Part shown: positions 2,903-19,117 of the stretch, one piece after another
Position numbering within the stretch: position 1 is the first letter of the stretch
How the letters are laid out: every line of letters begins with the position of its first letter
From: Symploca sp. SIO2E9
GTDB lineage: Bacteria > Cyanobacteriota > Cyanobacteriia > Cyanobacteriales > Coleofasciculaceae
Length of the DNA: 32,000 nucleotides
Direction: 5' to 3'
Assembly (NCBI GenBank): GCA_010692645.1
Contig: JAAHGS010000030.1
Span: 15,553 to 47,552, forward strand
The notes under the pieces: model-generated
The model's database searches: none
Seen by the model: the letters and a program-made list of their open reading frames with translations, nothing else
Told to the model about the DNA's origin: nothing
Position numbers and translations under genes: made by a program

Positions 2903-3649
2903 TTAACCTATAACTGGTAACATTTCAGGATGAATAGCGATCGCATGCCCAACATGCCAGCGAATATTAGGATAGGCTGCTTCTAGGGGGGTGATTTCAT
3001 ATCCTAGAGCTCTCAGAAAAGAAGCAATCTCCTCACTTTTGCGTTTGAAAGCCAAGCCATTGCCATCATCTACCTCATAAATGATGATTGGTTTAAATTC
3101 ATTCAGGGTTTGGACCATTCCCCTTAAAACCTCAATTTCTGCACCTTCAACATCAACTTTTACAAATGTTGGTGGTAGTAAAGTCTTCTGTAAGACTAAA
3201 TCATCAATACAGACGAGATCAACTGTCATTTCTCCCTTCAAATCAGGAGGTGTACCAGCAGTAGAGAGAGTAGCTCCTCCATGATGATGTGCTAGCAACA
3301 GCTCTCCACTTCCTGTGGTGTGGGAAACTGCTTTTTCCAGCAAGGTTACATTTGAGAACTCATTTAGTTTGACATTCTCTGAAATCCTAGCAGCGTTCTC
3401 TGGAACCGGCTCAAAAGCATAGACCTGTCCTGAAGCTCCAACTAGCTTAGCAGCAATTACAGTAAAGAAGCCAATATTAGCACCAATATCGTAGAAGATT
3501 CCCTCAGGTTTTAAGTAGCGTTGTAAAGCTTTCTGAAGCGGAAGTTCATAAGTACCTACTTTACAATCACGATTAGACTTATCAGCTTTGAACTTTAGTC
3601 CTGCACCTACTCCCTGACTAAGAGTAACATCTTGATTTTGGAAAACCAT
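2903..3649 (-). CDS. FkbM-family SAM-dependent methyltransferase
   Basis: A 248-aa ORF with an ATG start. It carries the motifs FYDIGANIGFFTV, VYAFEPVPENAARISENVKLN and FVKVDVEGAEIEVLRG, which are typical of FkbM-type methyltransferases. Confidence 0.85.
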   Translation of the reverse strand: MVFQNQDVTLSQGVGAGLKFKADKSNRDCKVGTYELPLQKALQRYLKPEGIFYDIGANIGFFTVIAAKLVGASGQVYAFEPVPENAARISENVKLNEFSNVTLLEKAVSHTTGSGELLLAHHHGGATLSTAGTPPDLKGEMTVDLVCIDDLVLQKTLLPPTFVKVDVEGAEIEVLRGMVQTLNEFKPIIIYEVDDGNGLAFKRKSEEIASFLRALGYEITPLEAAYPNIRWHVGHAIAIHPEMLPVIG

Positions 3650-3653
3650 GTTC

Positions 3654-5786
3654 TTATACCTTTGCTACCAAGTTTTTTAATACGCTACCTGTATCATTGC
3701 CCCATTCCCAATTAGCCACAATACCAACACGGTTAATAGAAAGAGGCACGGCATCTGGATAAACGTCTGTAAGGGCACGATATAGTACTGGCTCATCGTT
3801 GATGAAGGTAGTGTAATTCATGCCATCAAAGACTGTACGGAGCTTGTGAGCAACACCCCAATAAACCCGCTCACCCACATTCGTCCAAACAGCGTCGTAT
3901 AATTCCTCAAAGCCATTGAGATAGAAAAACGATGAAATTGAGGCACCACCGTAACAGTCATCTAACCAGTTGTTGATCATGATATAGTTGTTGGCATCTT
4001 GCCAAAACACCAGCCCGCTACGACCTTTTTCTCTCTGCCCTCGCCTAGTTCCAGGGGGTATAATCTCTATCTGTAGATCTACAAAGTTAGGGTTATCCCA
4101 GTCAACAGTGTAGGCAGTACGACCAGGATTAGGATTTTTGGCATTAGCTTGGACTTTAGCAGCACTGTTGCCAGTTAGCTCAATCACCCCTACTCCCATT
4201 TGCTTGTGCCAAGACTTTCCACCGATAGTTGTGGTTTTTCCGAGCAATTCTCCAGTTGAACCAGCAAAATCCTCGCTAATCACCACTTGCTTACCTTCCA
4301 CCATCCAGGGAGAACCTAGTTTAAGATTAGAGGGGATAGGAATGCTGCGTGGATGAGCCTCGAAGCAGCGAAAATACAAATTACTGTTAGCCTTAATCGC
4401 ACCAATACCAACGCCTGTAGCATTTTGCAGACGGTTATCAGTAAAACGCTTATTAAACAGCAATTTAGCATTTAGGTACAGACTGAAGCTCTCACCGTCA
4501 TCCAATATCTGTAAGGAGTTGATTGCTGAGGGCTGTAGATACCACAAATTACTAGCTGCTAAAATTTCCCACTTACCATTATCCAGAATCTGAAGCTTAC
4601 ACTGTTCCCCATCTGCCAGAATACTCCAGAAGTGGTTCTGATCCTGAAAACGCCAGAGAATGCGGGCACCAGTCACCTTCGCAGATGTTTCAATCAACAG
4701 ATGAACAAATCCAGAAGCTGTAGTACTCTCCAACACAGCTAGACTATCCATTTCCGTCGCTTGAGCACCATTAGCTGTTAATTGATAACTTCCTTGGTAT
4801 ACATTCCAGCAGCCACCCTTATCAGCTTGGGCACCATCAAGCAAACCATCGCCCATCAGGTTATCTGCTACATCTGCCGTGCCATACCAAGTCCCAATTT
4901 CTGGAATTTGCGCCACCTGAGTACCATAAACACGTGTATCAACTCGAAAACCACACTGTCCTAGAATACTTTGGTATAAGCCGGCGTAAACCGTAGCCTC
5001 CTCATTGAAGGGGTCGATCGCAATCAGGCGCATGTTAGGATAAGCCACGAGACCATGGGCATTAGGAACAGAAGCGGCATAGTAGGCTGCTCCCTTCTCC
5101 CGCAGAACTACGATGTAATAAAGCTGAATATTTTGTAAGCCTTTAAATGCTGAAAGCAGATGTTCTCCTACATTAGCCCACAACTCTCCATTTTCTGAGC
5201 CAGTAGCATGAACAATAAAGGAATTTCCCTCTACCAGTGGGTTATTAGGAACTTCTTGAGGAAACCAACCCACTGCCAGGTTTTCATCGATAGATGGCAA
5301 ATTAAATGGTTTGATGTATTTTGAGATTTTGGAAGTACTACGAATCCACCACAGGAATCGTCGCAGCATCCATCTTTTGTGTTTACTAGAAGCCCAACGT
5401 AGAAGACGCTCAGCTGGTTTATCCACCTCAGGACCAACTACCCAGCGATTGAGTCGCCCCTTGAGGGACTCAATCCTTTCCATCTGGGAGGTATTATGAC
5501 CATTGAGAAGAAACACTGCAAAGGCTAGCCCGTTGGTGCGAGTGTAGGGACCATAGGCAATACCTTGTCTTCCCCAAGCAGGTTTTAAAAGAGGCTGTAG
5601 ACGCAGTGCACCATTGTCAACAGCGATTTGCTTTTCTACGTCAACGCCCTTACGGATTTGGCCCCCCGGAGTTTTAGTGCCAATCGTCTTGCCAGCAGCA
5701 CGGTTGTCTGAGAATGAGTCGGTTAAAGGTTTTGTAATTGTTTTTATTTGTTCGGTATATTTTGGTGGTAGCTGCTGAGTTTTCAT
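3654..5786 (-). CDS. Conserved-looking hypothetical protein (710 aa), function unknown; possibly built from beta-sandwich (ConA/LamG-like) modules
   Basis: A long clean ORF with an ATG start. It ends 4 nt upstream of the FkbM gene, which suggests an operon. I can name no catalytic motif. The W/G/N/Y-rich segments (RILWRFQDQNHFWSILADGEQCKLQILDNGKWE; GLVFWQDANNYIMINNW) are only weakly suggestive of lectin-like jelly rolls. Confidence 0.7.
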   Translation of the reverse strand: MKTQQLPPKYTEQIKTITKPLTDSFSDNRAAGKTIGTKTPGGQIRKGVDVEKQIAVDNGALRLQPLLKPAWGRQGIAYGPYTRTNGLAFAVFLLNGHNTSQMERIESLKGRLNRWVVGPEVDKPAERLLRWASSKHKRWMLRRFLWWIRSTSKISKYIKPFNLPSIDENLAVGWFPQEVPNNPLVEGNSFIVHATGSENGELWANVGEHLLSAFKGLQNIQLYYIVVLREKGAAYYAASVPNAHGLVAYPNMRLIAIDPFNEEATVYAGLYQSILGQCGFRVDTRVYGTQVAQIPEIGTWYGTADVADNLMGDGLLDGAQADKGGCWNVYQGSYQLTANGAQATEMDSLAVLESTTASGFVHLLIETSAKVTGARILWRFQDQNHFWSILADGEQCKLQILDNGKWEILAASNLWYLQPSAINSLQILDDGESFSLYLNAKLLFNKRFTDNRLQNATGVGIGAIKANSNLYFRCFEAHPRSIPIPSNLKLGSPWMVEGKQVVISEDFAGSTGELLGKTTTIGGKSWHKQMGVGVIELTGNSAAKVQANAKNPNPGRTAYTVDWDNPNFVDLQIEIIPPGTRRGQREKGRSGLVFWQDANNYIMINNWLDDCYGGASISSFFYLNGFEELYDAVWTNVGERVYWGVAHKLRTVFDGMNYTTFINDEPVLYRALTDVYPDAVPLSINRVGIVANWEWGNDTGSVLKNLVAKV

Positions 5787-5819
5787 ATATTAAATCTCTA
5801 TAATTATTATGAAACGCTA

Positions 5820-5921
5820 TATAGCAATTCTCTTTCTTAGTGAGATACGCTTCATCTTCTTACCTGTTCCCTGTTCCCTAAAGCCCAAGGAGTGTACCTG
5901 ATCAATTTGAGAAACCCTATA
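5820..5921. mobile_element. Family-C MITE copy 1 (TATAGC...CTATA termini, CCTGTTC heptamer core)
   Basis: The sequence is tatagcaattctc...gagatacgc...cctgttccctgttccctaaagcccaag...caatttgagaaaccctata. It aligns with 30929-31044. Its right terminus contains the stop codon (5919..5917) of the PIG-L gene. Confidence 0.6.
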
Positions 5922-6738
5922 CTTTAATCTTATATCGATAGAAAATTTCTGTTTCTTGAAAAAAACATTTTAAAAACTCACCATTCGACACATCACCCAA
6001 TGTCAGCCAACGTGAATTATTCATCAGCCTGATCATCTGAGATTTGTGTTGGTCTAGGGCACTACGTTTAAGCTCTAAAATATCTCCTACATAGACAGAA
6101 CATCTGAAATCATTTAGGAACCTTAATCCTGAATTTAAACTCTTTTGTAAAAATGTTAATAATTTTTTGCGGTCACCTCCGCAATCTGTCCAAGGCCACT
6201 GATTCCAGAACCATATAGGATACTCATAAACAGTTGTATTGAGACCAGATTTCTTTAGTGCAGATACTACAATTTTATTAGTAGCATTATGGTCTGATAT
6301 GCCATCTTGATAGTAAGGAATAAAGATTTCTTCAGGTAGGAAATTAAGAATAATTTGTATAACTCTCTGGATAGTCTGATTCTGATTGTTAGCTAGGGTT
6401 CCATCTTTGACTTCAAGAAATATAACATCACTTGCTTCGACTCCCAGTTTTTGAGCTGCAGCCAAAGCTTCATGAGCGCGTATAGCCTTTAACTTATTTG
6501 CTGGAATCAGATGGGAGTGAGAAGTAGAGCCATCAGTCATAAAAACAATTTTTAAATCCGCTCCAGCTTGCTTTTTACGGATAATTGTTCCTCCACAACC
6601 AAGAGTTTCATCATCCTGATGTGGTGAAAAAACAAGCGTTGAGCGCTCCAGATTATTCTTCTCATATTCAATCATCGTGTTATCCCTTAAGGATCGATAC
6701 AACCACCGCCCCGGAGTTTTTAAGGAGAATTCACTCAT
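5917..6738 (-). CDS. PIG-L / LmbE-family N-acetylglucosaminyl deacetylase
   Basis: A 273-aa ORF with an ATG start. The diagnostic motif is LVFSPHQDDETLGCGGTI, followed by MTDGSTSH. A shorter start at MIEYEK is also possible. Confidence 0.85.
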   Translation of the reverse strand: MSEFSLKTPGRWLYRSLRDNTMIEYEKNNLERSTLVFSPHQDDETLGCGGTIIRKKQAGADLKIVFMTDGSTSHSHLIPANKLKAIRAHEALAAAQKLGVEASDVIFLEVKDGTLANNQNQTIQRVIQIILNFLPEEIFIPYYQDGISDHNATNKIVVSALKKSGLNTTVYEYPIWFWNQWPWTDCGGDRKKLLTFLQKSLNSGLRFLNDFRCSVYVGDILELKRSALDQHKSQMIRLMNNSRWLTLGDVSNGEFLKCFFQETEIFYRYKIKV

Positions 6739-6850
6739 AACTTTAGCATAACTTTAGTTTTTTTGTAATTAGAGTTATTCATAGTTAATAGTTCATAGGA
6801 AAGCTCCTTTAAATCATTCTTTCCTTTCCATGTATGATCTAAACAGCCCT

Positions 6851-6922
6851 ATGAACTATGTTTGCGCAGCATGCGCGGAGCGCCTACCATGAACTACCAA
6901 CCATGAACTATGAACCATGAAC
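6851..6922. repeat. Cluster of ATGAAC short repeats overlapping the 3' end of the TPR-GT4 gene
   Basis: ATGAAC occurs at 6851, 6889, 6903, 6910 and 6917. The last codons of the gene (KSVHGS*) are encoded by the repeat. Confidence 0.7.
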
Positions 6923-8983
6923 AGACTTACCACAGATATTTTTGTATTGAGATAGTAAATCATCAGCAACCTTCTCGAACGAGAAAAACTCAACTGCTCG
7001 TTTACGCCCAGCCTGCCCCAGAGATTTTCTTAACTCTTCGTCTGAAAAAAGTTGTATAATAGCTTCTGCTAAGGCATCAGCATCACTGCGTTCAACTAGT
7101 TTTCCTGTCTTACCATCTTCGACTAGTTCTGGAAAAGCACCACCGTGGGTAGCAATTACAGGAACACCTGCAACCATAGCTTCAGCAATAGGCATACCAA
7201 ATGCTTCGTGGCATATTGACGGGAAGATAAAAATGTCAGTCTGCTGGTAATATTTAGCCAAGTTTGAAGGTGGAACTAAACCAGCTAATGATAGTGGTTT
7301 AGGGACATTGTCACCAGCTTGACCATTCAACTGAGATAACTGTTTTTTCAGATAACTTATCCAAGTATCATCACGGTGGAATGAGACTAAATCTGCAACT
7401 TTGGGGTCATCACTCAATGCCACAAGGTATTCGTAGGGTATTACTCCTAAGGGACCTACTAGAGTAAGTTGTGTTTCTGGATATTGTGCAACTACTTTTT
7501 GAAAAGCTTCTAATAATACATGCACTCCTTTTTCTGGACAAACTCTGCCAACAAAAAGCAAGCGTTTGACATTATTTTTATTGGTTAGATTTTGACCAAG
7601 AAGAGAGGAATTAATAAAACGCTCAACATTCACGCCATTGGCAATAGCCTGACAGCGTTGAGCAAATTGAGGAAAACGCTGGCTAATAGCTTTTGTAATA
7701 TACTGACTAGGGCCGATAACTAAATCGACTTTACTGAGCCTTCCTTCAAGGCTTTTTTTGTCAAGTTGTGAGAGCCACTCACAATGCATGTGCAGGACTA
7801 TTTTTATGCCAGGATTAAAAGCTCGTATAACTGGAATAAACTGAGAGAAATTGTGAATATGAACAACGTCACATTGCTGCTTTCTCAAGTCATTTGCTAT
7901 CCTTAAAATATATCCTAGATAATATAAATTAGAACCAAAGATAGGGCGCTTAGTCTGGTCAAAGCCTGGAAACTTTTCCAGATACTTGAGCAATAACTTA
8001 TCTTGACTTATGGGGATATATCGATAATCCACTCCTTGATGAGAGACTTCCTTAAAGCTTTCTCCTGGTGTATAGACTATGACCTCGCAATCGGATGACA
8101 AAAGACTTACCAATTCGTAAGTCAAAATCCCAATTGAATCAGCGGGTTTAGGATAGCTTGTCATCACCATAGGCTGACCGATAAATGCTATCTTTAATCT
8201 GTCTGGAGAATCTGCTTTCTTTAACTTATTTTGCTGGCGATAAAGCTGGCTTAACTTATTGTGGATTAACTTATTGTAAACTTCCGCGTCGCTGGAATTG
8301 AGTTCTAGGGCTTGTTGATAGGAGTCGATCGCCTCTTCCAGCTTGCCTTGTTCTTGCAGTGCTAATCCTAAGTTATAATGTGCAAGGGCTAAGTCTGGCT
8401 GTAAAGCGATCGCCTGACGATAGTAAGTAATAGCATTCTTCAAATCCCCTGCTTTTTTCTGGCTAAGACCAAGATCATGGTTTAGTGCTGCGTAGTAGGG
8501 TTGTTTTTCTGGAGGGAGTTTCCCTAAGACATGGAGGGCGTTAGCCCAATTAACACTAATCTCAATAGAATCCGGCTTAACTTCGAGGGCTTTTTGATAG
8601 CAGGCGAGTGCCTCTTCCCAAAGCCCTTGTTGTTGTAATGTATAACCAAGGTTGTTGTGAACTGCTACCAACTTCGGTTGCATTGCTAAGACTCGATGGT
8701 AAGCTTCCACCGCTTCTGGCAATTGACCTTGAACTTGGCGCAAATTGCCTAGACTGAACCAAGCCTTGACAGAATTTGGCTGGACATAAAGGATCGCATT
8801 AAAAAACTTCTCTGCATTCTCGTATTGCCCTACCTGCTGTGCCAGCATTCCTAACCCGTGTAATGCCTCTGGATGCTTAGGCTGTATTTTCAGGATCTTA
8901 TCGTAAAACTGCTTAGCTTGGGGTAAACGATTAGCCCGATGATGTTGAACAGCAAGTTGAAGTGTTTCAGAAACGGTTACCAT
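6908..8983 (-). CDS. TPR-repeat protein fused to a GT4-family (Glycos_transf_1) glycosyltransferase
   Basis: The track start at 8989 is a TTG, and the ATG at 8983 gives MVTVSETLQLAVQHH. The N-terminal part is about 270 aa of TPR repeats. The C-terminal part has the GT-B motif EAFGMPIAEAMVAGVPVIATHGGAFPELVEDGKTGKLV. Confidence 0.85.
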   Translation of the reverse strand: MVTVSETLQLAVQHHRANRLPQAKQFYDKILKIQPKHPEALHGLGMLAQQVGQYENAEKFFNAILYVQPNSVKAWFSLGNLRQVQGQLPEAVEAYHRVLAMQPKLVAVHNNLGYTLQQQGLWEEALACYQKALEVKPDSIEISVNWANALHVLGKLPPEKQPYYAALNHDLGLSQKKAGDLKNAITYYRQAIALQPDLALAHYNLGLALQEQGKLEEAIDSYQQALELNSSDAEVYNKLIHNKLSQLYRQQNKLKKADSPDRLKIAFIGQPMVMTSYPKPADSIGILTYELVSLLSSDCEVIVYTPGESFKEVSHQGVDYRYIPISQDKLLLKYLEKFPGFDQTKRPIFGSNLYYLGYILRIANDLRKQQCDVVHIHNFSQFIPVIRAFNPGIKIVLHMHCEWLSQLDKKSLEGRLSKVDLVIGPSQYITKAISQRFPQFAQRCQAIANGVNVERFINSSLLGQNLTNKNNVKRLLFVGRVCPEKGVHVLLEAFQKVVAQYPETQLTLVGPLGVIPYEYLVALSDDPKVADLVSFHRDDTWISYLKKQLSQLNGQAGDNVPKPLSLAGLVPPSNLAKYYQQTDIFIFPSICHEAFGMPIAEAMVAGVPVIATHGGAFPELVEDGKTGKLVERSDADALAEAIIQLFSDEELRKSLGQAGRKRAVEFFSFEKVADDLLSQYKNICGKSVHGS

Positions 8984-9021
8984 CCTCAATCCTCATTGCT
9001 TAGAGACTGTATTGCTAATTT

Positions 9022-9067
9022 GTTCATTGCTCATTGTTCATAGTTCATAGTAATCAACCATGAACAA
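9022..9067. repeat. GTTCAT/ATGAAC short inverted repeats forming a hairpin in the intergenic gap
   Basis: GTTCAT occurs at 9022, 9036 and 9044. ttgttcat (9034-9041) pairs with atgaacaa (9060-9067). The hexamer is the same as in 6851-6922. Confidence 0.6.
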
Positions 9068-9163
9068 TCAACCATTAACCAATTGGCGGTTTGCTTTTCT
9101 CCCTAATCTTCCAGAGATGGGAACTACCGCCAATTCCTGTTACTCACAAACTGCCTATTCTGA

Positions 9164-12100
9164 TTATGGATAAGCGAAGTACAAATTATCTAGATGACTG
9201 CCATCGTCTGAGGATTTTGCCATCATTTTCTCGGCAATTGCATTCCGTAAGGGAGCCACTTGATCTGTGGTTAGCCAGGTGAATAACTCCGTCACTGCCT
9301 CTGGTGAACTATCGATTTTGACTGCTTCTTGAACCAGACGAAATGCAGCAGCAAGATTGCCAGCTTTTAGAGGAATTTGCGCTTGTGTTAGGCACAAATT
9401 AAAGTAATGGCGACGGGCTTTTGCCGTAATTTGTGTACGATGCTCAGCAGGAAGATAACTCTCTGAGATTTCAATTCCTTTGCGGTAGTATTCCCCCTGT
9501 ACCCCGGCTAGAAAAACTTCACTGGACATATTTTGGGAGTGCTGACGGTAACGGGCTAAAATTCCTGGCTCGAACCACCAATCATAAAAAGCAGCAATGC
9601 GTTTATAGAGTTCCCAGTCTGGTGTATATAGATTCCCTGGATCATAAACTCCCAATCGTTCATGAGCTACTCGACGAATTACAGTTGCACAGGGATTTAA
9701 GGGGTTTGAAACACCAATTCGCTGTAGCCATTCCTGATTGATGCCCTGTTGCATTCGAGCATGCTTTTGGGTGAAAGTTACCTGCCTGTTGTCATTAATA
9801 TTTTCATAACCTGTAAAAGCTGCTCCTACAGAATCTGGACATCCCTCTAGACTCTGTTGTAATCGAGAATAAAAACCTGGGAGGACATATTCATCCTCAG
9901 GGAGCAGGTGAATCCACTTACCACGACTGAGGGCAATTCCCAGATTAAAATTACGCCTAGCTCCAATATTTTCTGGATTTAGATAATAGCGGACTATTCC
10001 ACCACCAATGGCATTAACTAAATTATATAGAGGTGGATTACTGGCATTATCCATAACCAGAATTTCCATCTCTTCTTTACCTTGCCACTGAGCCAGCACG
10101 CTGGCAAGACATTCCAGAAGATAGTATTTCCGATTGTACAAGGGAATAATTACTGTCCAAAAAGGTCGTTTCTCCTCACTCTCTGCAACAGGAGGAATTA
10201 CTGGAAACTGATAGTTACCAACAGTGACTTCCTCTAGTTGTAGCTGCGGAGGTTTGTGTTCTTCTGTAGGAGTAGTAGAACCCTGGTATGCTTCGACGGC
10301 TTCAGCATAGCGAGGATTGATTAGCTTTAATCCCTGCCTATAAGCGGCAGCAGCTTCTTCTAATTTGTGCTGTATTTGGTAAATCTGTCCCAAGCCCAAA
10401 TAAAATTCCCCGTAGTTGGGATTGAGTTCCAAGGCTTGGTGATAGCAAGTGATGGCTTCTTCTAAATTTCCTTGTGTTTGTAGGGCTACCCCCAAGTTAT
10501 AGTGAGCTTCCCATAAGTCTCGCTGTAGGGTAATTGCCTCCCGATAGTATGCCACAGCATTGTTCATATCCCCAGCTTGTTTCCGGGCAAAGCCTAATTT
10601 GTTATTTAATTGTCCATAGTGTGCTTGTTTATCTGTGGAGAGTTTTCCTTGGGCGTGAAGGGCATTGCCCCAATTCACGTCGGCTTCAACGCAGTTAGGC
10701 TCAAGTTCCAGGGCTTTTTGATAGCAAGCGATCGCTTCTTCAAACTTACCTTGCTGTTGTAGAGTGTAACCGAGGTTGTTATAAATTGGTGCTGATTTTG
10801 GTTGCAGGGCAATAGCTTGCTGATAAGCCGCTTCTGCTTCTGGTAATTGAGCTTGAGCTTGATGCAAATTGCCTAAACTAAACCAACTCTTGAAAGATTC
10901 TGGCTGAACCTTAAGGGCTTTATTCAGTAACTTCTCAGCTTCTTGGGGTTGATTATTCTGCTGCGCTAGTACACCTAAACCATGTAAAGCTTCCGGGTGA
11001 TTAGGCTCTTGTGCGAGAACTTTCTGGTAATCCTGCGCAGCTTTGGCTAAATGATTGGCTCTATGGTTTTGAACAGCAAGCTTGAGAGTTTGAGAAACTT
11101 GAGAAACTTTTGCCATATCAAATTCCCTTTTTTCTTGATGCCGAAAGCTTTGATTTAATCTGTTCCTAACCGATACATCTTGTTGAGCAACTGTATTCAA
11201 GATAAAATCCTCTAAGGCTGTAATCGGTTCTTGGTCTCCGTATAATTTATGTTTATTCTGGGCTACTAGACTGGATATGTGTTGACGATATTGAGGATCT
11301 TTCCCTAAACGGACAGCAATCTTCACATATTCATCCTTACTAGAAGCAATTGTCTCCTCAATACCCATCATTTTGAGAATGGCAACCGCATGTCTTGCCC
11401 GCATCAACTCTCCTGGATAGGTAACAATTGGCAGGTTATGGGCAGTAGATTCCATAATCGTGTTGTTTCCAGACCAACCAATATTATCGAGGAAAACATC
11501 AGCAATAGCAGTTACTCCAGCAAATTTTCTACCCTTTAGGCGAGGCACAAAGATGCAATAGTCTTGATAATTAAGTCCAAATTCCTCAAAAGCACGACTT
11601 AAACGCTGTTGAAATACTTCAGTTACTTTGTCACTGGCATCCATAAGATGCTTAATAAAAACAAATTTACAGTTTATTAATTCCTTAGCAATCCTTGGAA
11701 AAATATCATCATGTTGAGGTAAATACTTAAACAATGATTGGCAGCACCAGAACATAACTTCATGCTCAGCAATGCCGATTTCCTGTTTACTAATTGCTTG
11801 GGTTTGGATATTTAAAAAGGTGTAATAAATTGCTAAATTTGGTAATCTGACTAACTTCTCAGTGTAATGTTCTTGAGCATTATCTGGTTCCATTAAATCA
11901 CTACTTAAGTGATAATCAATGGTTGGTAGACCACTGGTTTCTGGATGTCCTCCAAATACTACTTGCACAGGAGCTAATCTTAAACATCCCAGCTTAATTG
12001 TGATCGGATCCATCCCAAATTCAGGAAAAATTAGGATGTGTAGATTATCTCGCCGAATAACCTCACACCATTTTTCTATACTTAACGGACCTTGAATAAA

Positions 12101-13363
12101 TTTGCTAACAGCTTGAGTTGCTCTTGCTGTGGCATCATCCTGTTTGGAACCTGTATAATACCCAAATACTTCAAACAGATTTCTATTCAGGTTTTCTAAC
12201 CAACCTTTAATTGGTATTTTCCAAACGGAATGGTTGTTAAAAAAACCAGAAATAAAGCCCACACGAATTTTTTCGTTCGCCGCTAAATCCGGAATTGAAA
12301 TTGGCTGGCTCCATTGAGGATAGCGGCTCGACATTAGCCGACAAATCATCTCCCCATAAGTTTGCTGCAAATCTCGGTCATTTAGACCTTGATATGCTAG
12401 ATAAAATGGCTGAAGAGAGCCAACGGCATCAGCTGCATTTGCCAGTTCTTTTTGATTCTCAAGTTTATAACTATCAGCTAAAGCTTGTAGATGCTGCTGG
12501 TAATTATTCCGCATTAATAAGATTTCGTCAGCACTTGAATAGATAGTAGGAAGTTGACTCATACAAATGCCAAATTTGGCTTCATTGAAGTTAGGCTTAA
12601 GCTTTAAGGCTTGCTGGTAAGATTGTATGGCTTCCTCTAACTTTCCCTGTCTCTTGAGCGCATTTCCTAAATTGTAATAAACCTCAACACAGTCAGGGTT
12701 TAACCTTAATGATTGACGGTAAGCTTGTACTGCTTCCTCTATTTTTTTTTGTTCCTTGAATGCCTTGCCTAAATTATTATAAACTTCAGCAAAGTCAGGA
12801 TTGAGTCTTAAGGCTTGCTGGTAAGACTGTATGGCTTCCTCTAACTTTCCCTGTTCGTGAAGAAGATTTCCTAAATTGTTATAAGCATGAGCATAGTTAG
12901 GGTTGAGCCTTATTGCTTGTTGGTAAGCTTGTACAGCTTCCTCTAACTTTCCCTGTGCTTTGAGTACGTTTGCTAAATTGTTATGAGCCTGAACATAGCT
13001 AGGATTGACCCTTATTGCTTGCTGGTAGGACTTAACAGCTTGCTCTAATTTTATCTGTTGTTGGAATGCATTTCCCAAGTTGTAATGAGCTTCAACAAAA
13101 TCAGATTTGATCTTGATAGCTTGCTGGTAAGATTGTACTGCTTCCTCTAACTTTCCCTGCTTCTGGAGGAGATTGCCTAAGTCAGTAATTATCAGGTGAT
13201 ATATGTTACTTAGGAAATCTTGTTCTACTGCACTAGTAGACTGAGTTTCTAATACCTGTCTGTATATAGATTCAGCCTCATGCAATTCGCCTAATTTATG
13301 TTTCTGGGATGCAGTCTCAATTAGAGATTTAATATTTGGTTCTAAAAAGTTTTTGGTATTCAT
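9164..13363 (-). CDS. Multidomain glycosyltransferase: TPR array - GT41 (SPY/O-GlcNAc-transferase-like) domain - second TPR array - GT2 domain
   Basis: The track start at 13417 is a TTG that overlaps a hairpin. The ATG at 13363 gives MNTKNFLEP. The N-terminal TPRs carry repeated ...AHxNLGNxxxxQGKLEEAxxxYQQAxxLxP units. The central region has the GT41-like motifs IRVGFISGFFNNHSVWK, VVFGGHPETSGLPTIDYHLSSD and HYTEKLVRLPN. A second TPR block starts at the internal MAKVSQVSQTLKLAV (ATG at 11116). The C-terminal GT2 domain has WTVIIPLYNRKYYLLECLASVLAQ...ILVMDNAS...LLPEDEY. Confidence 0.85.
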   Translation of the reverse strand: MNTKNFLEPNIKSLIETASQKHKLGELHEAESIYRQVLETQSTSAVEQDFLSNIYHLIITDLGNLLQKQGKLEEAVQSYQQAIKIKSDFVEAHYNLGNAFQQQIKLEQAVKSYQQAIRVNPSYVQAHNNLANVLKAQGKLEEAVQAYQQAIRLNPNYAHAYNNLGNLLHEQGKLEEAIQSYQQALRLNPDFAEVYNNLGKAFKEQKKIEEAVQAYRQSLRLNPDCVEVYYNLGNALKRQGKLEEAIQSYQQALKLKPNFNEAKFGICMSQLPTIYSSADEILLMRNNYQQHLQALADSYKLENQKELANAADAVGSLQPFYLAYQGLNDRDLQQTYGEMICRLMSSRYPQWSQPISIPDLAANEKIRVGFISGFFNNHSVWKIPIKGWLENLNRNLFEVFGYYTGSKQDDATARATQAVSKFIQGPLSIEKWCEVIRRDNLHILIFPEFGMDPITIKLGCLRLAPVQVVFGGHPETSGLPTIDYHLSSDLMEPDNAQEHYTEKLVRLPNLAIYYTFLNIQTQAISKQEIGIAEHEVMFWCCQSLFKYLPQHDDIFPRIAKELINCKFVFIKHLMDASDKVTEVFQQRLSRAFEEFGLNYQDYCIFVPRLKGRKFAGVTAIADVFLDNIGWSGNNTIMESTAHNLPIVTYPGELMRARHAVAILKMMGIEETIASSKDEYVKIAVRLGKDPQYRQHISSLVAQNKHKLYGDQEPITALEDFILNTVAQQDVSVRNRLNQSFRHQEKREFDMAKVSQVSQTLKLAVQNHRANHLAKAAQDYQKVLAQEPNHPEALHGLGVLAQQNNQPQEAEKLLNKALKVQPESFKSWFSLGNLHQAQAQLPEAEAAYQQAIALQPKSAPIYNNLGYTLQQQGKFEEAIACYQKALELEPNCVEADVNWGNALHAQGKLSTDKQAHYGQLNNKLGFARKQAGDMNNAVAYYREAITLQRDLWEAHYNLGVALQTQGNLEEAITCYHQALELNPNYGEFYLGLGQIYQIQHKLEEAAAAYRQGLKLINPRYAEAVEAYQGSTTPTEEHKPPQLQLEEVTVGNYQFPVIPPVAESEEKRPFWTVIIPLYNRKYYLLECLASVLAQWQGKEEMEILVMDNASNPPLYNLVNAIGGGIVRYYLNPENIGARRNFNLGIALSRGKWIHLLPEDEYVLPGFYSRLQQSLEGCPDSVGAAFTGYENINDNRQVTFTQKHARMQQGINQEWLQRIGVSNPLNPCATVIRRVAHERLGVYDPGNLYTPDWELYKRIAAFYDWWFEPGILARYRQHSQNMSSEVFLAGVQGEYYRKGIEISESYLPAEHRTQITAKARRHYFNLCLTQAQIPLKAGNLAAAFRLVQEAVKIDSSPEAVTELFTWLTTDQVAPLRNAIAEKMMAKSSDDGSHLDNLYFAYP

Positions 13364-13415
13364 TTTTAGAAAACGCACTTTTTTTGCGGCGGTATAAATT
13401 TTGAAGAGTAAAGGC

Positions 13416-13434
13416 AAAGGAGAGTCTCTCCTTT
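13416..13434 (-). terminator. Short inverted repeat aaaggagag-t-ctctccttt downstream of the HetP-family gene; weak terminator candidate
   Basis: Nine-bp arms separated by 1 nt, located between the HetP-family stop (13501) and the next gene's ATG (13363). No clear U-tract follows. Confidence 0.3.
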
Positions 13435-13500
13435 AACCTTTTCCCTCACTCTTAATGAATAATGAACAAGATACCTTACTTGAACAAGGAAGACAGCCAA

Positions 13501-13950
13501 TTACCAGATAGAAGTTGAAGTTTGTTGATTGATATAAGTTACTGACTGACATGGAATTGACTGGCATTCTTCCAGTTCGTGGTTAAAGTAATGCTCCTGA
13601 TAACCACCTTGTACTTTTGGGGCTTTATCCCTAAGTACCTCACAATATTTAAGGTCATCAATTTTGCTTAAAAGCTGGTTGGAAACTTTGTTGTTATAAC
13701 CCTTTTCTGTTTGCTGTTGATGTGCTTTGATACTATCCGATTTCTTCCTTCGTGATTTGCCATTTTGGCAGTTTTCTTTATTCAACCGACTATAGGTGCG
13801 GTAGGGAATATAGTGGAGGGGGTTGTAGCCAGCAAAACGTAGGATCAAAACACAAGCCCAGGAATATTTGCCATCAAGAATTGCTTCTACAATCTGGTTA
13901 AACTGTTCAGAACTTAAACCTTTGTCAAATTGATTGTTGCTATAAATCAT
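13501..13950 (-). CDS. HetP-family (heterocyst commitment protein-like) protein
   Basis: A 149-aa ORF with an ATG start. The N-terminal block [40 protein letters not shown] matches my recollection of the conserved HetP N-domain. The C-terminal half is low-complexity and basic. Whether this is the orthologue or a paralogue of hetP cannot be decided here. Confidence 0.65.
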
Positions 13951-13988
13951 TGTAATCGCCCTCTTAATCTGAATTTAAATTGGGAGTA

Positions 13989-15683
13989 TTAAATGTTCAT
14001 GCCGCCCTCTTGCAGCTTTTTGAAAGGTTCTAACAAAAAGTCTGCAATTCGACGGCGGCGGATAATAATATCAGCGCTGGCTGTTTGACCAGCCTTAAAC
14101 TCGATAGTTTCTTCATTGTCAGTTACATAGTTACGTTCTAACTCCACTTCCACTCGGTAGACTGCACCCATTTGTGGATCTGGCTTAGCATCAGGGGATA
14201 CCGAAGTAACTTTCCCTGAAACAATGCCGTACTCCTGATAAGGGTAAGCATCGAATTTGACCTGAGCTTTCATGCCCATCTTGATAAAGCCTGCCTCACG
14301 GTTGGGTAAACTTGCTGAGAGAACCAGTGGCGCACTATCCGGGGCAATTTCAGCAATAGTTTGGCTCGGTTGAACCACTTCACCGATATTGGCAAAGTTG
14401 AAGGATGAGACAATTCCATCAACCGGTGCATAGAGAAACTTCTTTTTTAGCCTTGCCTTAGCACTTGTAAGCAGATTTTTGTTGTTGGCAATTTTAGCTT
14501 TGAGTTGGGTCATTTCTAATTCGAGTTCCCCCAGTTCCTGCTGAAAATCGATCTGAATCCTGTTTTCTTCAGTTTGCTTCTGGCTTAACACTGCCTGGAG
14601 TCGGTCGATTTCTGCCAGAGTCTGCTGCAATTCACCCTGGTTTTGACTAATAAGCACAGAACGATCTCGCAGACTTTGCTGGGCTTGAAATATCCTTTCG
14701 GTGGTGTGGGTTTCCTCTTGCAATTGGCTTTGGGTGATGGCACTCTGGCTCGCACGGAGGTTTTGTTCAGCTTGAAACACTAGTTCCCTGGAGATAGCAC
14801 CATCTGCCAACAGTGGTTGCAACCGCTGAAGTCGTTCTTGTTGAGCATTAACATCAGCCCGCCGTTGACCAACTAGTTCTTGAGCCTTGAGGGCCAGAGG
14901 TTTCATCCTTTCTAGTCTTTCCCGCTCAACAGATAACCAAGCTTGATCTTGAGCCAGCCGCTGTTTAATCACAGCTGCTTTAGATTTCGCCTGAGCAATT
15001 GCCGCTTTTTGAGCTTGAGTGTCTGCCTTGGCAATTTGGTCACGACTTTGAGCTTCCAGACGAATTTGCTCAGCCAAAGCCACTTTTTGAGTCAATTCCA
15101 CTTGCTCTCCACTGAGTAGTTGCTCCAGACGTTCTACTTCAGCAGCAACCAGCTCTGTATCTAATTCCACTAATTCTTGCCCTGCTTTAACCGATTGACC
15201 TTCTTCAACATGAATTTTGGCAATCTTGTCTAGTTCAAGGGCATGAACTTTATACACTTGTCCTTTTGGTACTAATTTGCCTTGGGCAATACCTACTTCG
15301 TCAATCTGACCAAAGGTTGCCCAAGTACCAAATGTCACCAAGAAAACCAATCCTCCCAAGAGCATCTTCTGGGGCAGGGTTGCAGAGGGTTGGTCCAGCA
15401 GTGTTTGTAAGGAGGTTGACCAGTTGCTAGTATTGGTGGCTGCTGCCGGCGATGCAATTGTTAAGAGATCCTGTTTATTTACATTTAATTGCTTAATTTG
15501 TTGGTATGTTGCTGATGTACCTCCAGAGATAGATTCACTCTGGGAAGATGCATCATATAATCCTCGATCATCACGTTCTCTGGTTAGAGCAGATTTAAAG
15601 CTCGCTTCAGAGTTCGTGACCAAGTTAACACTTGGTTGACTTGAAGACTCTGTAAGAGGAGTCGATTCTGTTGATTTGTCCAT
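13989..15683 (-). CDS. HlyD-family membrane-fusion / periplasmic adaptor protein of a type I (ABC) exporter
   Basis: A 564-aa ORF with one TM segment (LLGGLVFLVTFGTWATF) and the lipoyl-like motifs HVEEGQSVKAGQELVELD and APVDGIVSSFNFANIGEVVQP. Between them is a very long Q/E/A/L-rich coiled coil. The C-terminal part is a beta-barrel region. Confidence 0.9.
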   Translation of the reverse strand: MDKSTESTPLTESSSQPSVNLVTNSEASFKSALTRERDDRGLYDASSQSESISGGTSATYQQIKQLNVNKQDLLTIASPAAATNTSNWSTSLQTLLDQPSATLPQKMLLGGLVFLVTFGTWATFGQIDEVGIAQGKLVPKGQVYKVHALELDKIAKIHVEEGQSVKAGQELVELDTELVAAEVERLEQLLSGEQVELTQKVALAEQIRLEAQSRDQIAKADTQAQKAAIAQAKSKAAVIKQRLAQDQAWLSVERERLERMKPLALKAQELVGQRRADVNAQQERLQRLQPLLADGAISRELVFQAEQNLRASQSAITQSQLQEETHTTERIFQAQQSLRDRSVLISQNQGELQQTLAEIDRLQAVLSQKQTEENRIQIDFQQELGELELEMTQLKAKIANNKNLLTSAKARLKKKFLYAPVDGIVSSFNFANIGEVVQPSQTIAEIAPDSAPLVLSASLPNREAGFIKMGMKAQVKFDAYPYQEYGIVSGKVTSVSPDAKPDPQMGAVYRVEVELERNYVTDNEETIEFKAGQTASADIIIRRRRIADFLLEPFKKLQEGGMNI

Positions 15684-15835
15684 AGTCGTGACTTGCCATT
15701 AACAGATTCGATAAATTGTGTAGACATCCTGAAAGTGTTTGCTTGCTGGTGAGGAGATGCTTTCTTAACTCCTCAACAACTACAAATCAAAGTTTTAGGG
15801 TGTTTTGTGAAAATGATCAAGCTGGGTGCGTCTAT

Positions 15836-15872
15836 AGAGTGTTGGGAGAATGACCGTTCTCTTCAACACTCT
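15836..15872 (-). other. Imperfect long hairpin in the 287-bp spacer between the ABC exporter and HlyD genes
   Basis: agagtgttg (15836-15844) pairs with caacactct (15864-15872). An inner stem pairs gagaa (15846-15850) with ttctc (15857-15861). Confidence 0.3.
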
Positions 15873-15970
15873 GCACTTTGGCCTGATTTTACATGTAGAT
15901 AGAGGTCTTGTCTGAGCATATCTACCTAACCATGAAAGTAAAAGTCTTTCCTCCTTAAACATAAAACTAT

Positions 15971-18900
15971 TTACAGCTCTAGCTGCTGCCGTGCTAGGTG
16001 GTAGTAAATCCCTTCTAGAGCCATAAGTTGCTCATGATTACCTTGCTCAGCTAGGATACCTTTATCTAGCACGAGGATGCAGTCGGCATTGCGTACGGTG
16101 GAAAGGCGGTGGGCAATGATGAAAGTAGTGCGCTCCCGGCTGATACGAGCGAGGTTTTGTTGAAAACGCCGCTCTGACTCAGTGTCTAGAGAGCTAGTTG
16201 CTTCATCAAGAACCAAAATCCTAGGACTGCCCAACAGTGCTCTAGCAATCGCGATCCGCTGGCGCTGCCCTCCAGAAAGTGTGGCACCTCGCTCCCCGAC
16301 TTTAGTGTTATATCCCAGTGGGAGGGATTGGATAAAAGCATGAGCCTCTGCTAATTTGGCAGCCTCTATTGCTTGTTCTAGGCTAAATTCAGGTCGATAT
16401 AGAACTATGTTCTCTAGTATTGTACCAGAAAACAAAAAACATTCCTGTGGTACAACGCCCAGCTGAGAACGCAAGGACTCGGGGGAAACGTGCCGGATAT
16501 CGTGACCATCGATACAAATGCGACCCTGAGTAGGGTAATATAGGGCTTGGAGTAGCTTTACCAAAGTGCTTTTGCCCGAACCACTACGTCCAACAATGGC
16601 AATAGTTTGTCCGGCTCGAACCTCCAGCGAAATATTCTGAAGAGTGTTCTTATCCTCTTCTTCAGAGTAACGAAAAGTAATATTTTCCAAGACGACATCA
16701 CCCCTAATTGGAGGCATAACCAGCATTGGTTCTCGGGGATTTTCCTCTGGCTGTGTTGCAAAGATATCATTGAGTCGTTCTACGGAGACGAGAATTTCTT
16801 GAAACTGGTCCCAAAGTCCCACCAACTTCAACACTGGGCCTGTCACCCTGCCAATGAGCATATTAAAGGCCACAAACTGACCAATGGTGAGTTGATCGCT
16901 AATCACCAGGTTTGCCCCATAAGCCAGTAAAGCCGTGCTACTGATGGTCTTAAAAAAACCACTAACTGAACGCAAACCATTACTGAGTTTCTGAGCTTTA
17001 AATCTCACATTAAACTGATTTGTGAGTAATTCTTCCCACTGCCAACGCACCTCTTGCTCAGCTGCTGAGGCCTTCACTGTTGCTACTCCCGACATCATTT
17101 CCACTAACTTAGAGTTTTGCTCTGCTGATGCCTTAAAAATTTCCCGTGACAGTTGGCGCAGGAATGGACTAGCTACCACTGTCAAAATGGCAATAGGTGG
17201 GATTGTTGAGAGCACTAGTAGGGTTAGTTGCCAGTTGTAGTAGAGCATCAGCCCTGTAGAAACAAACAACATCAGAACATCGAGCCAAGTGGAAATCGCT
17301 TGCTTAGTGATAAACGACTGAATTTTCCTGGTTTCCTGAACTCGTGTGATGATGTCTCCTACCTGGCGTGATTCAAAGAATTTTAGGGGTAACCTCAGGG
17401 TATGGTTCATGAAGCCGCTGAGGAAGGTGAGACTCAACCGATTGGAATAGTAGTCCATCAGGTATCGCCTGGTAGCAGTTATACCAATGCCCCAAAGACC
17501 AAATATCACTAGCCCAGCAGCTACAACCTGCAAGGTGATTAAGCTTTTGTTGACGATCACCCGGTCAAGAATGATTTGGGTAAACAGGGGGGTAATCAGA
17601 CCAAAAACCTGGAGTAGCAGGGAAGCCAGGACAACTTGCAACAGTATCCCACGATGGGGCCACAATAAACCCCAAAAGCGATTGAGGGAGATCTTTTCAT
17701 CTTTGGCTGCTGCCAATTGTACTGTCGGGTCCAACAGCAGGGCATATCCTGTCCAGTTGCTGATAAATTCTTGTTTAGAGAGAGAACGTACTCCCATCGC
17801 TGGATCAGCAAGGATAACGCGGTTGCCCTTGACACGGTAAACGACAATATAGTGGTCTCCCTGCCAATGAGCAACCCAGGGATTGGCTTGCTCAACTAAG
17901 CGGCTTAAAGAAGCTCTTACTGGACTAGACCTAAATCCCAAAGTTTCAGCAGCTCTGGCTAAACCTTTAAGGGAAGCACCAGAGCGCCCCACACCAGCTA
18001 GTTCCCGCAGAGAGTTGAGGTTAAACCTCTTGCCCCAGTATCGCCCGATCATTGCCAAGCAGGCGGCACCGCAATCAGAAGAACTATGCTGCTGAATGAA
18101 AGGGTAGCGTTGCCAAAACCCTCGACGCCTGGGTAACCTGGCTGGTTGAGGAAAATCAATCTTTTCCGATTCGGTGTTCGAGGCTGGGGTTGGCGGCTTG
18201 GGAGGGATTTTCTTGTGTAGGTTGGATGGGGGTATTGCCCTTAATCTATTGGCAACGCCTCCATTATTTTGCTGAGCAAGGTCACCATTACCGGAAGCAG
18301 CAGCAATGGGCTTAGAGTCTTGGGAGTCAAGGTTGACTCCTAAACCGGCAACTACTGCCCAATGTTCTTTAGGGAGCTTGTAAACCAATAAATCGGTTTT
18401 AGCAATCCACTCAGCTGGTATCGGCTCTGGATAGCCCCAACTTTCTCCCGTAATCGATGTTGTTATTTCTTTGCCTTTACTAATTTCACCACTACGTAAC
18501 CAGAAGTGCCCAGAGTCGGAAGACTTAATAAGTGCTTCGTCTGCGGGCATCAAAGTTTCTTCTATGTAGGGTAAAACTTGCTTTAGGGAAGCTACGGGCA
18601 AACGCCGCCATTGTGTTGCAGTCTTGAAAAAGACCAGACTTTGTCTAGTCTGGGCACTCTCAAGTAACTTTTGTCGTAACTGTGGGAGTTTTTCCAACCA
18701 AGACTGTAGTTTGGCAATGGGCATCCAGGCAATTTGACCCTCACTGGCCGCAATTACGCGAGTTAGAGCAGGAATATGGACGAACAAAGGCTCACTGCCA
18801 AAACTGTCTCCGGCTTCAAGTACCATCACAGAAACTTCTTTGCTCTGTGTGGTGTCAAAGCCCAGAAGTCGCACCCGCCCCTGGCAAATTATGAATAATC

Positions 18901-19117
18901 CCTGAGTGTGTTCATCATGAACAGAATCTTCTGAAGTATTGGTGGCAATGTAGCTGTGTAAATAATCACCTAGTTGAAAATCGCTGATTTCAAATGCCTG
19001 AGTGAAATCTGACTCCAAGTATTTGTCCTCGGAAGACAGGCTCAGGAGGTTGAGGATATCGGTAAGGCTCTCGAAAACATTTTTTTTGCTTGCGTAGAGC
19101 CCCTTAGATCCTGACAT
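15971..19117 (-). CDS. Peptidase-C39-domain ABC exporter with an N-terminal cyclic-nucleotide-binding-like domain (HetC-like architecture)
   Basis: A 1048-aa ORF with an ATG start. The N-terminal part is a cNMP/CAP-effector-like fold (GLFIICQGRVRLLGF...LEAGDSFGSEPLF). The C39 catalytic Cys lies in QQHSSSDCGAACLAMIGRYWGK. Six TM helices follow. The ATPase motifs are Walker A GRSGSGKST, signature LSGGQRQRIAIARAL and Walker B ILVLDEATSSLD. Confidence 0.9.
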   Translation of the reverse strand: MSGSKGLYASKKNVFESLTDILNLLSLSSEDKYLESDFTQAFEISDFQLGDYLHSYIATNTSEDSVHDEHTQGLFIICQGRVRLLGFDTTQSKEVSVMVLEAGDSFGSEPLFVHIPALTRVIAASEGQIAWMPIAKLQSWLEKLPQLRQKLLESAQTRQSLVFFKTATQWRRLPVASLKQVLPYIEETLMPADEALIKSSDSGHFWLRSGEISKGKEITTSITGESWGYPEPIPAEWIAKTDLLVYKLPKEHWAVVAGLGVNLDSQDSKPIAAASGNGDLAQQNNGGVANRLRAIPPSNLHKKIPPKPPTPASNTESEKIDFPQPARLPRRRGFWQRYPFIQQHSSSDCGAACLAMIGRYWGKRFNLNSLRELAGVGRSGASLKGLARAAETLGFRSSPVRASLSRLVEQANPWVAHWQGDHYIVVYRVKGNRVILADPAMGVRSLSKQEFISNWTGYALLLDPTVQLAAAKDEKISLNRFWGLLWPHRGILLQVVLASLLLQVFGLITPLFTQIILDRVIVNKSLITLQVVAAGLVIFGLWGIGITATRRYLMDYYSNRLSLTFLSGFMNHTLRLPLKFFESRQVGDIITRVQETRKIQSFITKQAISTWLDVLMLFVSTGLMLYYNWQLTLLVLSTIPPIAILTVVASPFLRQLSREIFKASAEQNSKLVEMMSGVATVKASAAEQEVRWQWEELLTNQFNVRFKAQKLSNGLRSVSGFFKTISSTALLAYGANLVISDQLTIGQFVAFNMLIGRVTGPVLKLVGLWDQFQEILVSVERLNDIFATQPEENPREPMLVMPPIRGDVVLENITFRYSEEEDKNTLQNISLEVRAGQTIAIVGRSGSGKSTLVKLLQALYYPTQGRICIDGHDIRHVSPESLRSQLGVVPQECFLFSGTILENIVLYRPEFSLEQAIEAAKLAEAHAFIQSLPLGYNTKVGERGATLSGGQRQRIAIARALLGSPRILVLDEATSSLDTESERRFQQNLARISRERTTFIIAHRLSTVRNADCILVLDKGILAEQGNHEQLMALEGIYYHLARQQLEL

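Follow-up and report, generated by a model that had tools for sequence, protein, structure and literature searches.

A hetC–hlyD–hetP locus of Symploca sp. SIO2E9 as a probably ancestral form of the hetC–hetP module, with HetP as a candidate substrate of the exporter

Introduction

In Anabaena the genes hetC and hetP act in heterocyst differentiation, and the cargo of HetC has been an open question since hetC was first described. Related genes occur in a stretch of 32,000 nucleotides from Symploca sp. SIO2E9 (contig JAAHGS010000030.1, positions 15,553 to 47,552; hereafter the window), a member of a genus which we take to be non-heterocystous. The stretch raises the question how a trio of a HetC-like exporter, an HlyD-family adaptor and a HetP-family protein is related to the hetC–hetP pair, and which substrates such an exporter may carry. 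All three genes lie on the minus strand: the exporter at 15971..19117 (1048 amino acids, aa), the HlyD-family type I secretion membrane-fusion protein (MFP) at 13989..15683 (564 aa, full length; TIGR01843) and the HetP-family protein at 13501..13950 (149 aa; NF037966). The spacing is 287 bp between the exporter and HlyD genes and 38 bp between the HlyD and HetP genes. A first-pass annotation of the window had recognized this gene order and the architecture of the exporter (cNMP-like, C39 peptidase, transmembrane and nucleotide-binding domains), and both the coordinates and the Pfam and NCBIfam assignments, which pass curated thresholds at scores well outside chance, agree with it. The three window proteins that were compared with databases each have an entry of 100% identity from a Symploca sp. 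SIO2E9 MAG. The substrate of HetC is given as unknown, and no protein with a characteristic leader was found near hetC (PMC10986499); in the non-heterocystous clusters described here the leader class can be read directly. The value of the locus is comparative, as it keeps a complete state of the module and indicates HetP as a candidate substrate of HetC.

HetC orthology and domain structure of the exporter

For the placement of the exporter, 80 genome loci with HetP-family genes were retrieved, and exporter-like and HlyD-like open reading frames (ORFs) were mapped around them (loci are cited by their L numbers where needed). A neighbour-joining tree of 63 peptidase-containing ATP-binding cassette (ABC) transporters (PCATs; 971 columns, 100 bootstraps), a set without the HetC sequence of PCC 7120, joined the window exporter with every PCAT encoded directly upstream of a HetP gene in a single clade (97/100), and a separate clade (100/100) was formed by second PCATs, paired with HlyD, located 3-4 kb downstream of hetP in many Nostocales. 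Within the HetC-type clade non-heterocystous sequences stand beside heterocystous ones. A clade member from Nostoc parmelioides is 1044 aa long and carries Cys347 and His420, which are the residue numbers mutated in HetC of Nostoc PCC 7120 (PMC10986499). Because of the shared clade and of this member with the residue numbering of HetC, the window exporter, a long-type PCAT, is on sequence comparison an orthologue of HetC and not a paralogue. The link to the Anabaena hetC–hetP pair that the first-pass annotation had drawn was thereby confirmed, and its suggestion of a paralogous module was not. In the same tree, the hetC–hetP pair of a metagenome-assembled genome (MAG) labelled Leptolyngbyaceae (L047) nests within Nostoc beside N. 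parmelioides, so that a Nostoc contig was probably binned wrongly here.

Four Pfam domains were assigned to the exporter: cNMP_binding (PF00027, aa 68-142, 34 bits against a cutoff of 27.5), Peptidase_C39 (PF03412, aa 337-465, E 1.3e-40), ABC_membrane (PF00664, aa 495-762) and ABC_tran (PF00005, aa 826-975). The C39 cysteine-peptidase domain (17723..18109, minus strand) retains all catalytic residues (Cys349, His422 and Asp438) and is predicted to be active; the ATPase motifs are likewise intact (Walker A at 843, Q-loop at 889, LSGGQ at 947, Walker B at 967 and H-loop at 1001). Sequence matches to PCAT1, HlyB and ComA start only at residue ~330, and PCAT1 (4RY2) aligns with residues 331-1044. 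In an AlphaFold2 (AF2) model of moderate confidence, calculated from an alignment of 39 sequences, the N-terminal sensor region (18344..18991, minus strand) consists of two beta-rich modules (aa 43-133 and 186-258) with long helices between them, the predicted local distance difference test (pLDDT) being about 80-89 across aa 70-260; the first module is the CAP_ED/cNMP-like domain. A Pro/Ser/Asn-rich linker with a pLDDT of about 27-43 (aa 265-336; 18110..18325, minus strand) leads to the C39 domain.

HetC's N-terminal domain (HetC-NTD) binds GDP, GTP and ppGpp (Kd about 59 uM), showed no binding of cAMP, cCMP, c-di-GMP or 2-oxoglutarate, and was proteolytically active on an artificial substrate (PMC10986499). 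By analogy, the probable gate of export through the window exporter is a guanine nucleotide, for instance ppGpp, and not cAMP or cGMP. Of the earlier suggestion that a ligand of the cNMP-like domain gates export, the gating therefore stays plausible, and a cyclic nucleotide as the ligand is probably wrong.

Stepwise loss of the HlyD adaptor

With 242.4 bits the window HlyD exceeds the cutoff of TIGR01843 (type_I_hlyD, 208.65). It has one transmembrane helix (about aa 107-125), and an alignment with E. coli HlyD (8DCK) covers residues 94-368 and 410-556. The composition profile, the 8DCK alignment and the coverage by shortened MFPs delimit a helix-rich segment (aa ~169-415; 14439..15179, minus strand), which presumably forms the alpha-helical hairpin by which HlyD docks the outer-membrane channel TolC.

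In the 80 loci 82 HetP-like ORFs were found, and 51 of them have an intact PCAT upstream. Among these, a full MFP accompanies 11 and a short one 21; the other 19 lack an MFP. All 11 loci in which a full HlyD (475-648 aa) accompanies exporter and HetP lie outside Nostocales, namely in Chroococcidiopsidaceae, Microseira, Coleofasciculaceae, Phormidiaceae, Stenomitos and others. In Symploca SIO2B6 (L085) synteny is identical along the entire array, from HrcA across the trio as far as FkbM, and the same trio is present in Moorena (L086).

The adaptors of the 21 loci with a short MFP measure 260-416 aa. Those of Fischerella, Stigonema and Chlorogloeopsis match residues ~1-155 and ~400-564 of the window HlyD in one frame, which indicates an in-frame loss of the helical segment; those of Scytonema and Cyanomargarita are shortened differently. 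Pseudogenes were considered for the short adaptors and ruled out, since in the groups tested (the Fischerella group, Chlorogloeopsis and Stigonema) the ORFs are intact at a synonymous divergence (dS) of about 1.2, with a ratio of nonsynonymous to synonymous substitutions (dN/dS) of 0.32-0.54; the short adaptors are thus maintained genes. Profile searches of the hetC–hetP spacer detected HlyD relics in L004, L032, L042, L045 and L015 (E 1e-19 to 1e-41) and faint relics in L049, L024 and L060 (some about 1e-6), and by the same profile none was detectable in L016, L026, L055 and L067, which include Nostoc spacers of ~1.1 kb.

Since the full trio occurs outside the heterocyst-formers and HlyD is progressively lost within them, the HlyD gene is to be regarded as ancestral. 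Its description as an inserted gene was rejected: every non-heterocystous relative has the adaptor, and its decay is seen in the heterocystous relatives. The first-pass annotation had also spoken of a more complete version of the hetC–hetP module, and this proved apt. It is well supported that the trio-type locus represents the module in its complete, ancestral form, kept here in a non-heterocystous filamentous cyanobacterium, the ancestral status of the full hetC–hlyD–hetP arrangement being probable. A taxonomy look-up places Symploca in the order Coleofasciculales, and to our knowledge heterocysts are limited to Nostocales. As Symploca is presumably non-heterocystous, a role in heterocyst commitment cannot apply in this host. 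The annotation had assigned the trio to differentiation and commitment and had itself named a non-heterocystous host, with the trio unrelated to differentiation, as telling against this; the first half of that statement describes what was found.

In Nostocales the adjacency of hetC and hetP outlasted the loss of both the adaptor and the small precursors. Both papers on HetC report no adaptor gene near hetC and speculate on a periplasmic release of the substrate. Taken together, the evolutionary account would be that of a peptide-secretion cluster remodelled by stepwise adaptor loss toward heterocyst development.

A second long PCAT, phylogenetically distinct and accompanied by a full-length HlyD, is found in many Nostocales ~3-9 kb downstream of hetP (L010, L012, L015, L020, L025-L029, L036, L037, L048, L055, L068, L069 and L079), and some of these pairs have their own precursors with leaders of the M.ISDLxxxE...GG class. 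Such a pair could provide an adaptor in trans. Many Nostoc genomes, lichen-associated and other, have nothing but C39-domain fragments of a decayed exporter in front of a HetP gene, which may be the true hetP or a duplicate (L022, L028, L034, L038, L041, L046, L053, L063-L065, L073 and L076), and in several of them the double glycine (GG) of HetP has changed to AGS.

A leader-like motif within the HetP-family protein

The earlier assignment of the 149-aa protein to the HetP family holds, with 115.5 bits over residues 4-60 against the cutoff of 45 for NF037966 (HetP_family, NCBIfam). A database entry of 100% identity, from Symploca sp. SIO2E9, is annotated as 'HetP family heterocyst commitment protein', and PF28069 was found on every one of the best 120 of 1847 HetP homologues. 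The N-domain (aa 14-64; 13759..13911, minus strand) is predicted as a three-helix bundle (helices 14-25, 29-39 and 50-64; pLDDT >90). It is the near-invariant core of the family (mean pairwise identity 0.86; dN/dS 0.11-0.22), and all of its invariant columns are kept in the window protein. A Foldseek comparison of the HetP model with the PDB gave no fold match (best E 1.8), and a HetP profile returned only spurious repebody matches among PDB sequences. Behind the N-domain follow a poorly conserved linker of low AF2 confidence, an internal GG leader-like motif recognized by conservation and pattern search (aa 94-116 with GG at 115-116; 13603..13671, minus strand) and a C-terminal tail of 33 aa (13504..13602, minus strand), which by its position after GG is a putative exported fragment. 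Identity to the closest relative is 69-76% for the tail versus 52% for the linker; family-wide, tail identity is about 0.2.

Within the motif G116 is invariant throughout the family, and L94, I97, D99, L100, L103, E104 and G115 are nearly so. Residues 96-116 of the window protein fit the motif KIxDLxYLEx10GG, with Cys replacing Leu; it is the motif given by Wang et al. (2011; PMC3140520), who suggested a precursor role for HetP-like proteins. No follow-up to this proposal was found in the literature searched.

A leader pattern covering both the HetP block and the leader of a classical small precursor at 991-1311 was established and searched in 1.37 million translated aa from the window and the 80 loci. 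It matched 98 stop-to-stop segments, compared with a mean of 0.5 and a maximum of 2 in residue shuffles. The individual matches, 99 in total, were distributed over HetP ORFs (74) and small ORFs (25) and occurred in no other context; in all 25 small precursors a Met stands exactly two residues before the motif. Shortly behind the trio, classical precursors are encoded in L001, L017, L023, L031, L033, L040, L044, L050 and Moorena, with five tandem copies in L050 and five copies in Moorena. Hydrophobic positions of the HetP motif are -4, -11/-12, -14/-15 and -17. Among 162 motif-selected sequences position -4 is hydrophobic in 98%, -12 in 91% and -7 in 2%, and GG is present in 100%, as required by the selection pattern. 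A hidden Markov model (HMM) built from the classical leaders alone picked up 77 of the 83 HetP sequences in the correct place, with individually weak matches (median E about 1, best 0.004); because single HMM matches are not significant, the assignment to a shared leader class is based on the pattern search and its shuffles. A strict GG is found in all 51 HetP proteins with an intact PCAT and in 10 of 23 where the PCAT is decayed or absent, a comparison which ignores phylogeny (many of the genomes are related lichen Nostoc); the variants at the latter loci read RAGS, CAGS, RGS or NGA.

These results suggest that the internal motif of HetP belongs to the same class as the classical N-terminal leaders, which offers a new point of comparison. 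HetP may accordingly work like a GG-leader peptide and, as the motif class is shared, becomes a second candidate substrate of the exporter. It is not a canonical GG-leader peptide, because the motif lies internally (aa 94-116) behind a folded domain and not at the N-terminus of a small precursor. C39 domains need only ~12-15 residues before GG, read positions -4, -7 and -12 and tolerate any P' sequence, and long conserved leader domains are known whose N-terminal part is dispensable for C39 cleavage (PMC6363468). Since only residues close before GG are needed, the folded domain upstream is no obstacle in principle.

HetP paralogues consisting of the N-domain only, without leader-like motif or tail, occur beside PCAT clusters in Moorena (L086, upstream copy at 7253-7558) and, as second copies, in Anabaena lutea and Trichormus (L057, 18872-19228, and L074, 18854-19207, both on the minus strand). 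The Moorena paralogue indicates that leader and tail form a separable module.

The classical precursor and its glycosyltransferase cassette

The classical GG precursor of the window is encoded at 991..1311 on the strand of the trio, 12 kb away. The translated protein has 106 aa, belongs to a small protein family annotated as 'hypothetical' and consists of the leader MIISDLSYLEVVEESNVVGG, followed by YGG..., and an Asp/Val-rich core. It is homologous, at 40-43% identity, to the precursors encoded behind the trio of L031 and of L044. The leader region (1252-1311, minus strand) ends in GGYGG, which offers two possible GG cleavage sites three residues apart, and homologues in L084 end in GGTGG. 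The GG leader that the first-pass annotation had seen in this peptide is real and the peptide is a good substrate candidate; as the only candidate in the window it can no longer stand, for HetP carries the leader class internally.

Between HetP and the precursor lies a block of five genes (2903..13417, minus strand), which were assigned by Pfam and NCBIfam. They encode a protein of tetratricopeptide repeats (TPR) with GT41 and GT2 domains (1417 aa), a TPR-GT4 protein (693 aa), a PIG-L deacetylase, a 710-aa protein of no assigned function and an FkbM methyltransferase. Symploca SIO3C6 (L081) keeps block and peptide together, and another MAG (L082) does so in part; in SIO2B6 the trio and the cassette up to FkbM are kept, and the locus ends before the peptide. 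Beside the trio of the 80 other loci the glycosyltransferase block was not found, and it was therefore rejected as a general partner of the trio; it travels with the precursor. The block has the appearance of a modification cassette whose target would be a secreted peptide, possibly glycosylated or methylated, and it probably modifies the precursor at 991-1311. In L081 and L082 rotamase genes lie close to the cassette of the peptide.

Proposed mechanism and alternative explanations

We consider it moderately probable that the locus is an ancestral HetC-type secretion module and that HetP is in addition a client of its exporter. PCAT, full-length HlyD and a presumed TolC-like channel encoded elsewhere would form a type-I-like peptide secretion machine, which would cleave GG leaders and export peptides across both membranes, with the sensor region gating export by a guanine nucleotide such as ppGpp, as in the analogous HetC. 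One cargo would be the 106-aa precursor with its glycosyltransferase/deacetylase/methyltransferase cassette. In the case of HetP, the motif at aa 94-116 would dock in the C39 groove and be cut after Gly116; the 33-aa tail would be exported and the three-helix N-domain would remain cytoplasmic, so that exporter activity would be coupled to gene regulation via the DNA-binding N-domain. Taken for itself, this client role of HetP is quite possible, though it falls somewhat short of probable. The account builds on observed domains, catalytic residues, orthology, synteny and the conservation and specificity of the motif; cleavage, export, ligand and the function in Symploca are inferred. A wider version is more tentative and in our view rather doubtful. 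Here HetP-family proteins would be regulator–precursor fusions and substrates of HetC-type exporters, whose C39 cut frees or activates the N-domain and exports the C-terminal peptide; the adaptor, having lost its hairpin and then vanished, would have re-routed the peptide from the medium to the shared periplasm of the filament. If true, a secretion cluster was turned into a developmental commitment and signalling switch.

Several points weigh against this account. Cleavage is a prediction for every HetP, AF2 models the motif at low confidence and without a helix, and among the window ORFs scanned with Pfam and NCBIfam there is no TolC-like gene. Besides the weak single HMM matches and the shared ancestry behind the GG comparison, GS and GA are also permitted PCAT cleavage sites. 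The spacer to GG measures 10 residues in HetP versus 8 in classical leaders, the hydrophobic register is off by 1-2 positions, and only 2% have a hydrophobic residue at -7; the classical precursors, too, lack one at this position and mostly carry Glu. The ligand of the cNMP-like domain in the window exporter is an extrapolation from HetC. In Anabaena, a C-terminal HetP fusion to superfolder green fluorescent protein (HetP-sfGFP) is functional and similarly localized in a hetC peptidase-deletion strain, and hetP over-expression bypasses hetC, a moderate level compensating fully for a non-functional hetC (PMC4133259). As over-expressed full-length hetP works without functional hetC, processing of HetP is not obligatory. 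In favour of the account, HetC-GFP and HetP-GFP are both concentrated near the heterocyst poles (PMC4133259). The bypass and HetP-sfGFP data fit activation by processing and equally fit no processing.

The same observations lend themselves to the reading that exporter and HlyD secrete classical small precursors only. HetP would then be a co-located or co-regulated cytoplasmic DNA-binding regulator which is never cut by C39, and its C-terminal motif would have another use, such as binding a partner, directing the protein to the membrane or the pole, or turnover. This agrees with HetP of Anabaena being a cytoplasmic non-specific DNA-binding helper of sigma-HetZ (PMC13342950), with the sfGFP and bypass results, with the HMM values, spacing and register of the motif and with the existence of N-domain-only paralogues; we nevertheless hold it to be rather unlikely, for it leaves unexplained why the pattern occurs in two contexts only and so far above expectation, why G116 is invariant and GG strict only with an intact PCAT, and why the hetC–hetP adjacency survived the loss of adaptor and precursors in Nostocales.

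An ordinary group II bacteriocin cluster, in which the HetP-like protein is a long-leader precursor comparable to NHLP/N11P and has no regulatory role, appears improbable. Wang et al. (2011; PMC3140520) classified such clusters and counted HetP-like proteins as precursors, the cluster comprises a long-type PCAT together with HlyD and classical precursors, and the dispensable long leader domains mentioned above would provide a precedent. However, the N-domain is the most constrained part of HetP and a confidently predicted three-helix bundle, it is regulatory inside cells in Anabaena, the tails have no known antimicrobial activity, and rotamase/SurA and M16 peptidase genes gave no Pfam match among the window ORFs scanned. 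Very improbable is the paralogous hetC–hetP module with an inserted HlyD, a heterocyst role and gating by cAMP or cGMP. Architecture and HetP-family membership are real and hetC and hetP do act in Anabaena differentiation, but the exporter groups as an orthologue with its species-tree neighbours, the adaptor is ancestral and was lost in heterocyst-formers, the host belongs to a lineage taken as non-heterocystous, HetC-NTD binds no cAMP, cCMP or c-di-GMP, and the window contains no HetR-type palindrome (GAGGGGN5CCCCTC; a search tolerating up to 2 mismatches gave 0 matches). The HetC-type secretion module with HetP as a possible client thus stays the explanation we prefer.

Comparison with known systems

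The closest known system is the orthologous hetC (alr2817)–hetP (alr2818) pair of Anabaena/Nostoc sp. PCC 7120, which shares the cNMP-like, C39, transmembrane and nucleotide-binding architecture, the downstream HetP gene on the same strand and the C-terminal GG motif of HetP; the catalytic Cys/His are 347/420 there and 349/422 in the window. In contrast to Nostoc, where about 1.1 kb without an adaptor separates the two genes, the window encodes a full-length HlyD between them, contains classical GG precursors in the cluster, lacks a detectable HetR-type site and belongs to an organism taken to be without heterocysts. The kind of locus is already known: Wang, Fewer, Sivonen et al. (2011; PMC3140520), who classified the C39-transporter clusters of cyanobacteria, named it group II, and the window HetP carries their motif. 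Group II clusters and the window share the long-type CAP_ED-C39 transporter with HlyD, adjacent HetP-like proteins with KIxDLxYLEx10GG and small GG precursors, of which group II has several. They differ in SurA/rotamase and M16, which were not detected among the window ORFs scanned, and in the 10.5-kb glycosyltransferase/deacetylase/methyltransferase block that separates precursor and exporter.

Like PCAT1, ComA, LahT and CvaB (colicin/microcin V), the window exporter has a C39 domain fused to an ABC exporter, and it would likewise cut after Gly-Gly with a hydrophobic reading of the leader. CvaB works with CvaA and TolC as partners in a three-component system of Gram-negative bacteria. Unlike these transporters, the window exporter carries an additional N-terminal sensor region of ~330 aa without a solved counterpart, its leader class has Glu or Lys instead of Leu at -7, and one candidate substrate holds its leader internally behind a folded domain. 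The precursors NHLP/N11P (e.g., ProcA of Prochlorococcus) resemble HetP, by analogy only, in a large conserved N-region, GG and a short variable C-peptide; HetP differs in an intracellular function of its own (DNA binding, heterocyst commitment), and tail-modifying enzymes are not known for it. With respect to HlyB-HlyD-TolC, the match of the adaptor to E. coli HlyD (8DCK) extends through the membrane-proximal, helical and beta-barrel parts, and the ABC part aligns with HlyB. HlyB differs in a C39-like domain that is inactive and in a secretion signal at the C-terminus, whereas the window shows a C39 domain with a complete set of catalytic residues and a predicted GG leader signal.

Further features of the window

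A promoter and terminator scan of the window gave counts not above shuffles, and Rfam gave 0 matches in the window. A terminator-like hairpin at 13415..13435 (minus strand), 66-86 nt past the HetP stop and composed of a 9-pair stem with a T-rich tail, is weak evidence and only a hint. At 21628-22965 (plus strand) a gene for an RRXRR and HNH endonuclease lies between rhodanese and DUF3352 genes; as these two adjoin in the otherwise syntenic SIO2B6, it is an insertion in the genome of the window. Another ABC exporter (transmembrane and nucleotide-binding domains without C39; 27702-29505, plus strand) is broken into two ORFs (449 and 130 aa), and the break coincides exactly with an array of tandem octamers (GACACGGG x4.5) at 29034-29069. 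Similar octamer arrays occur at 2791-2837 and 25072-25106.

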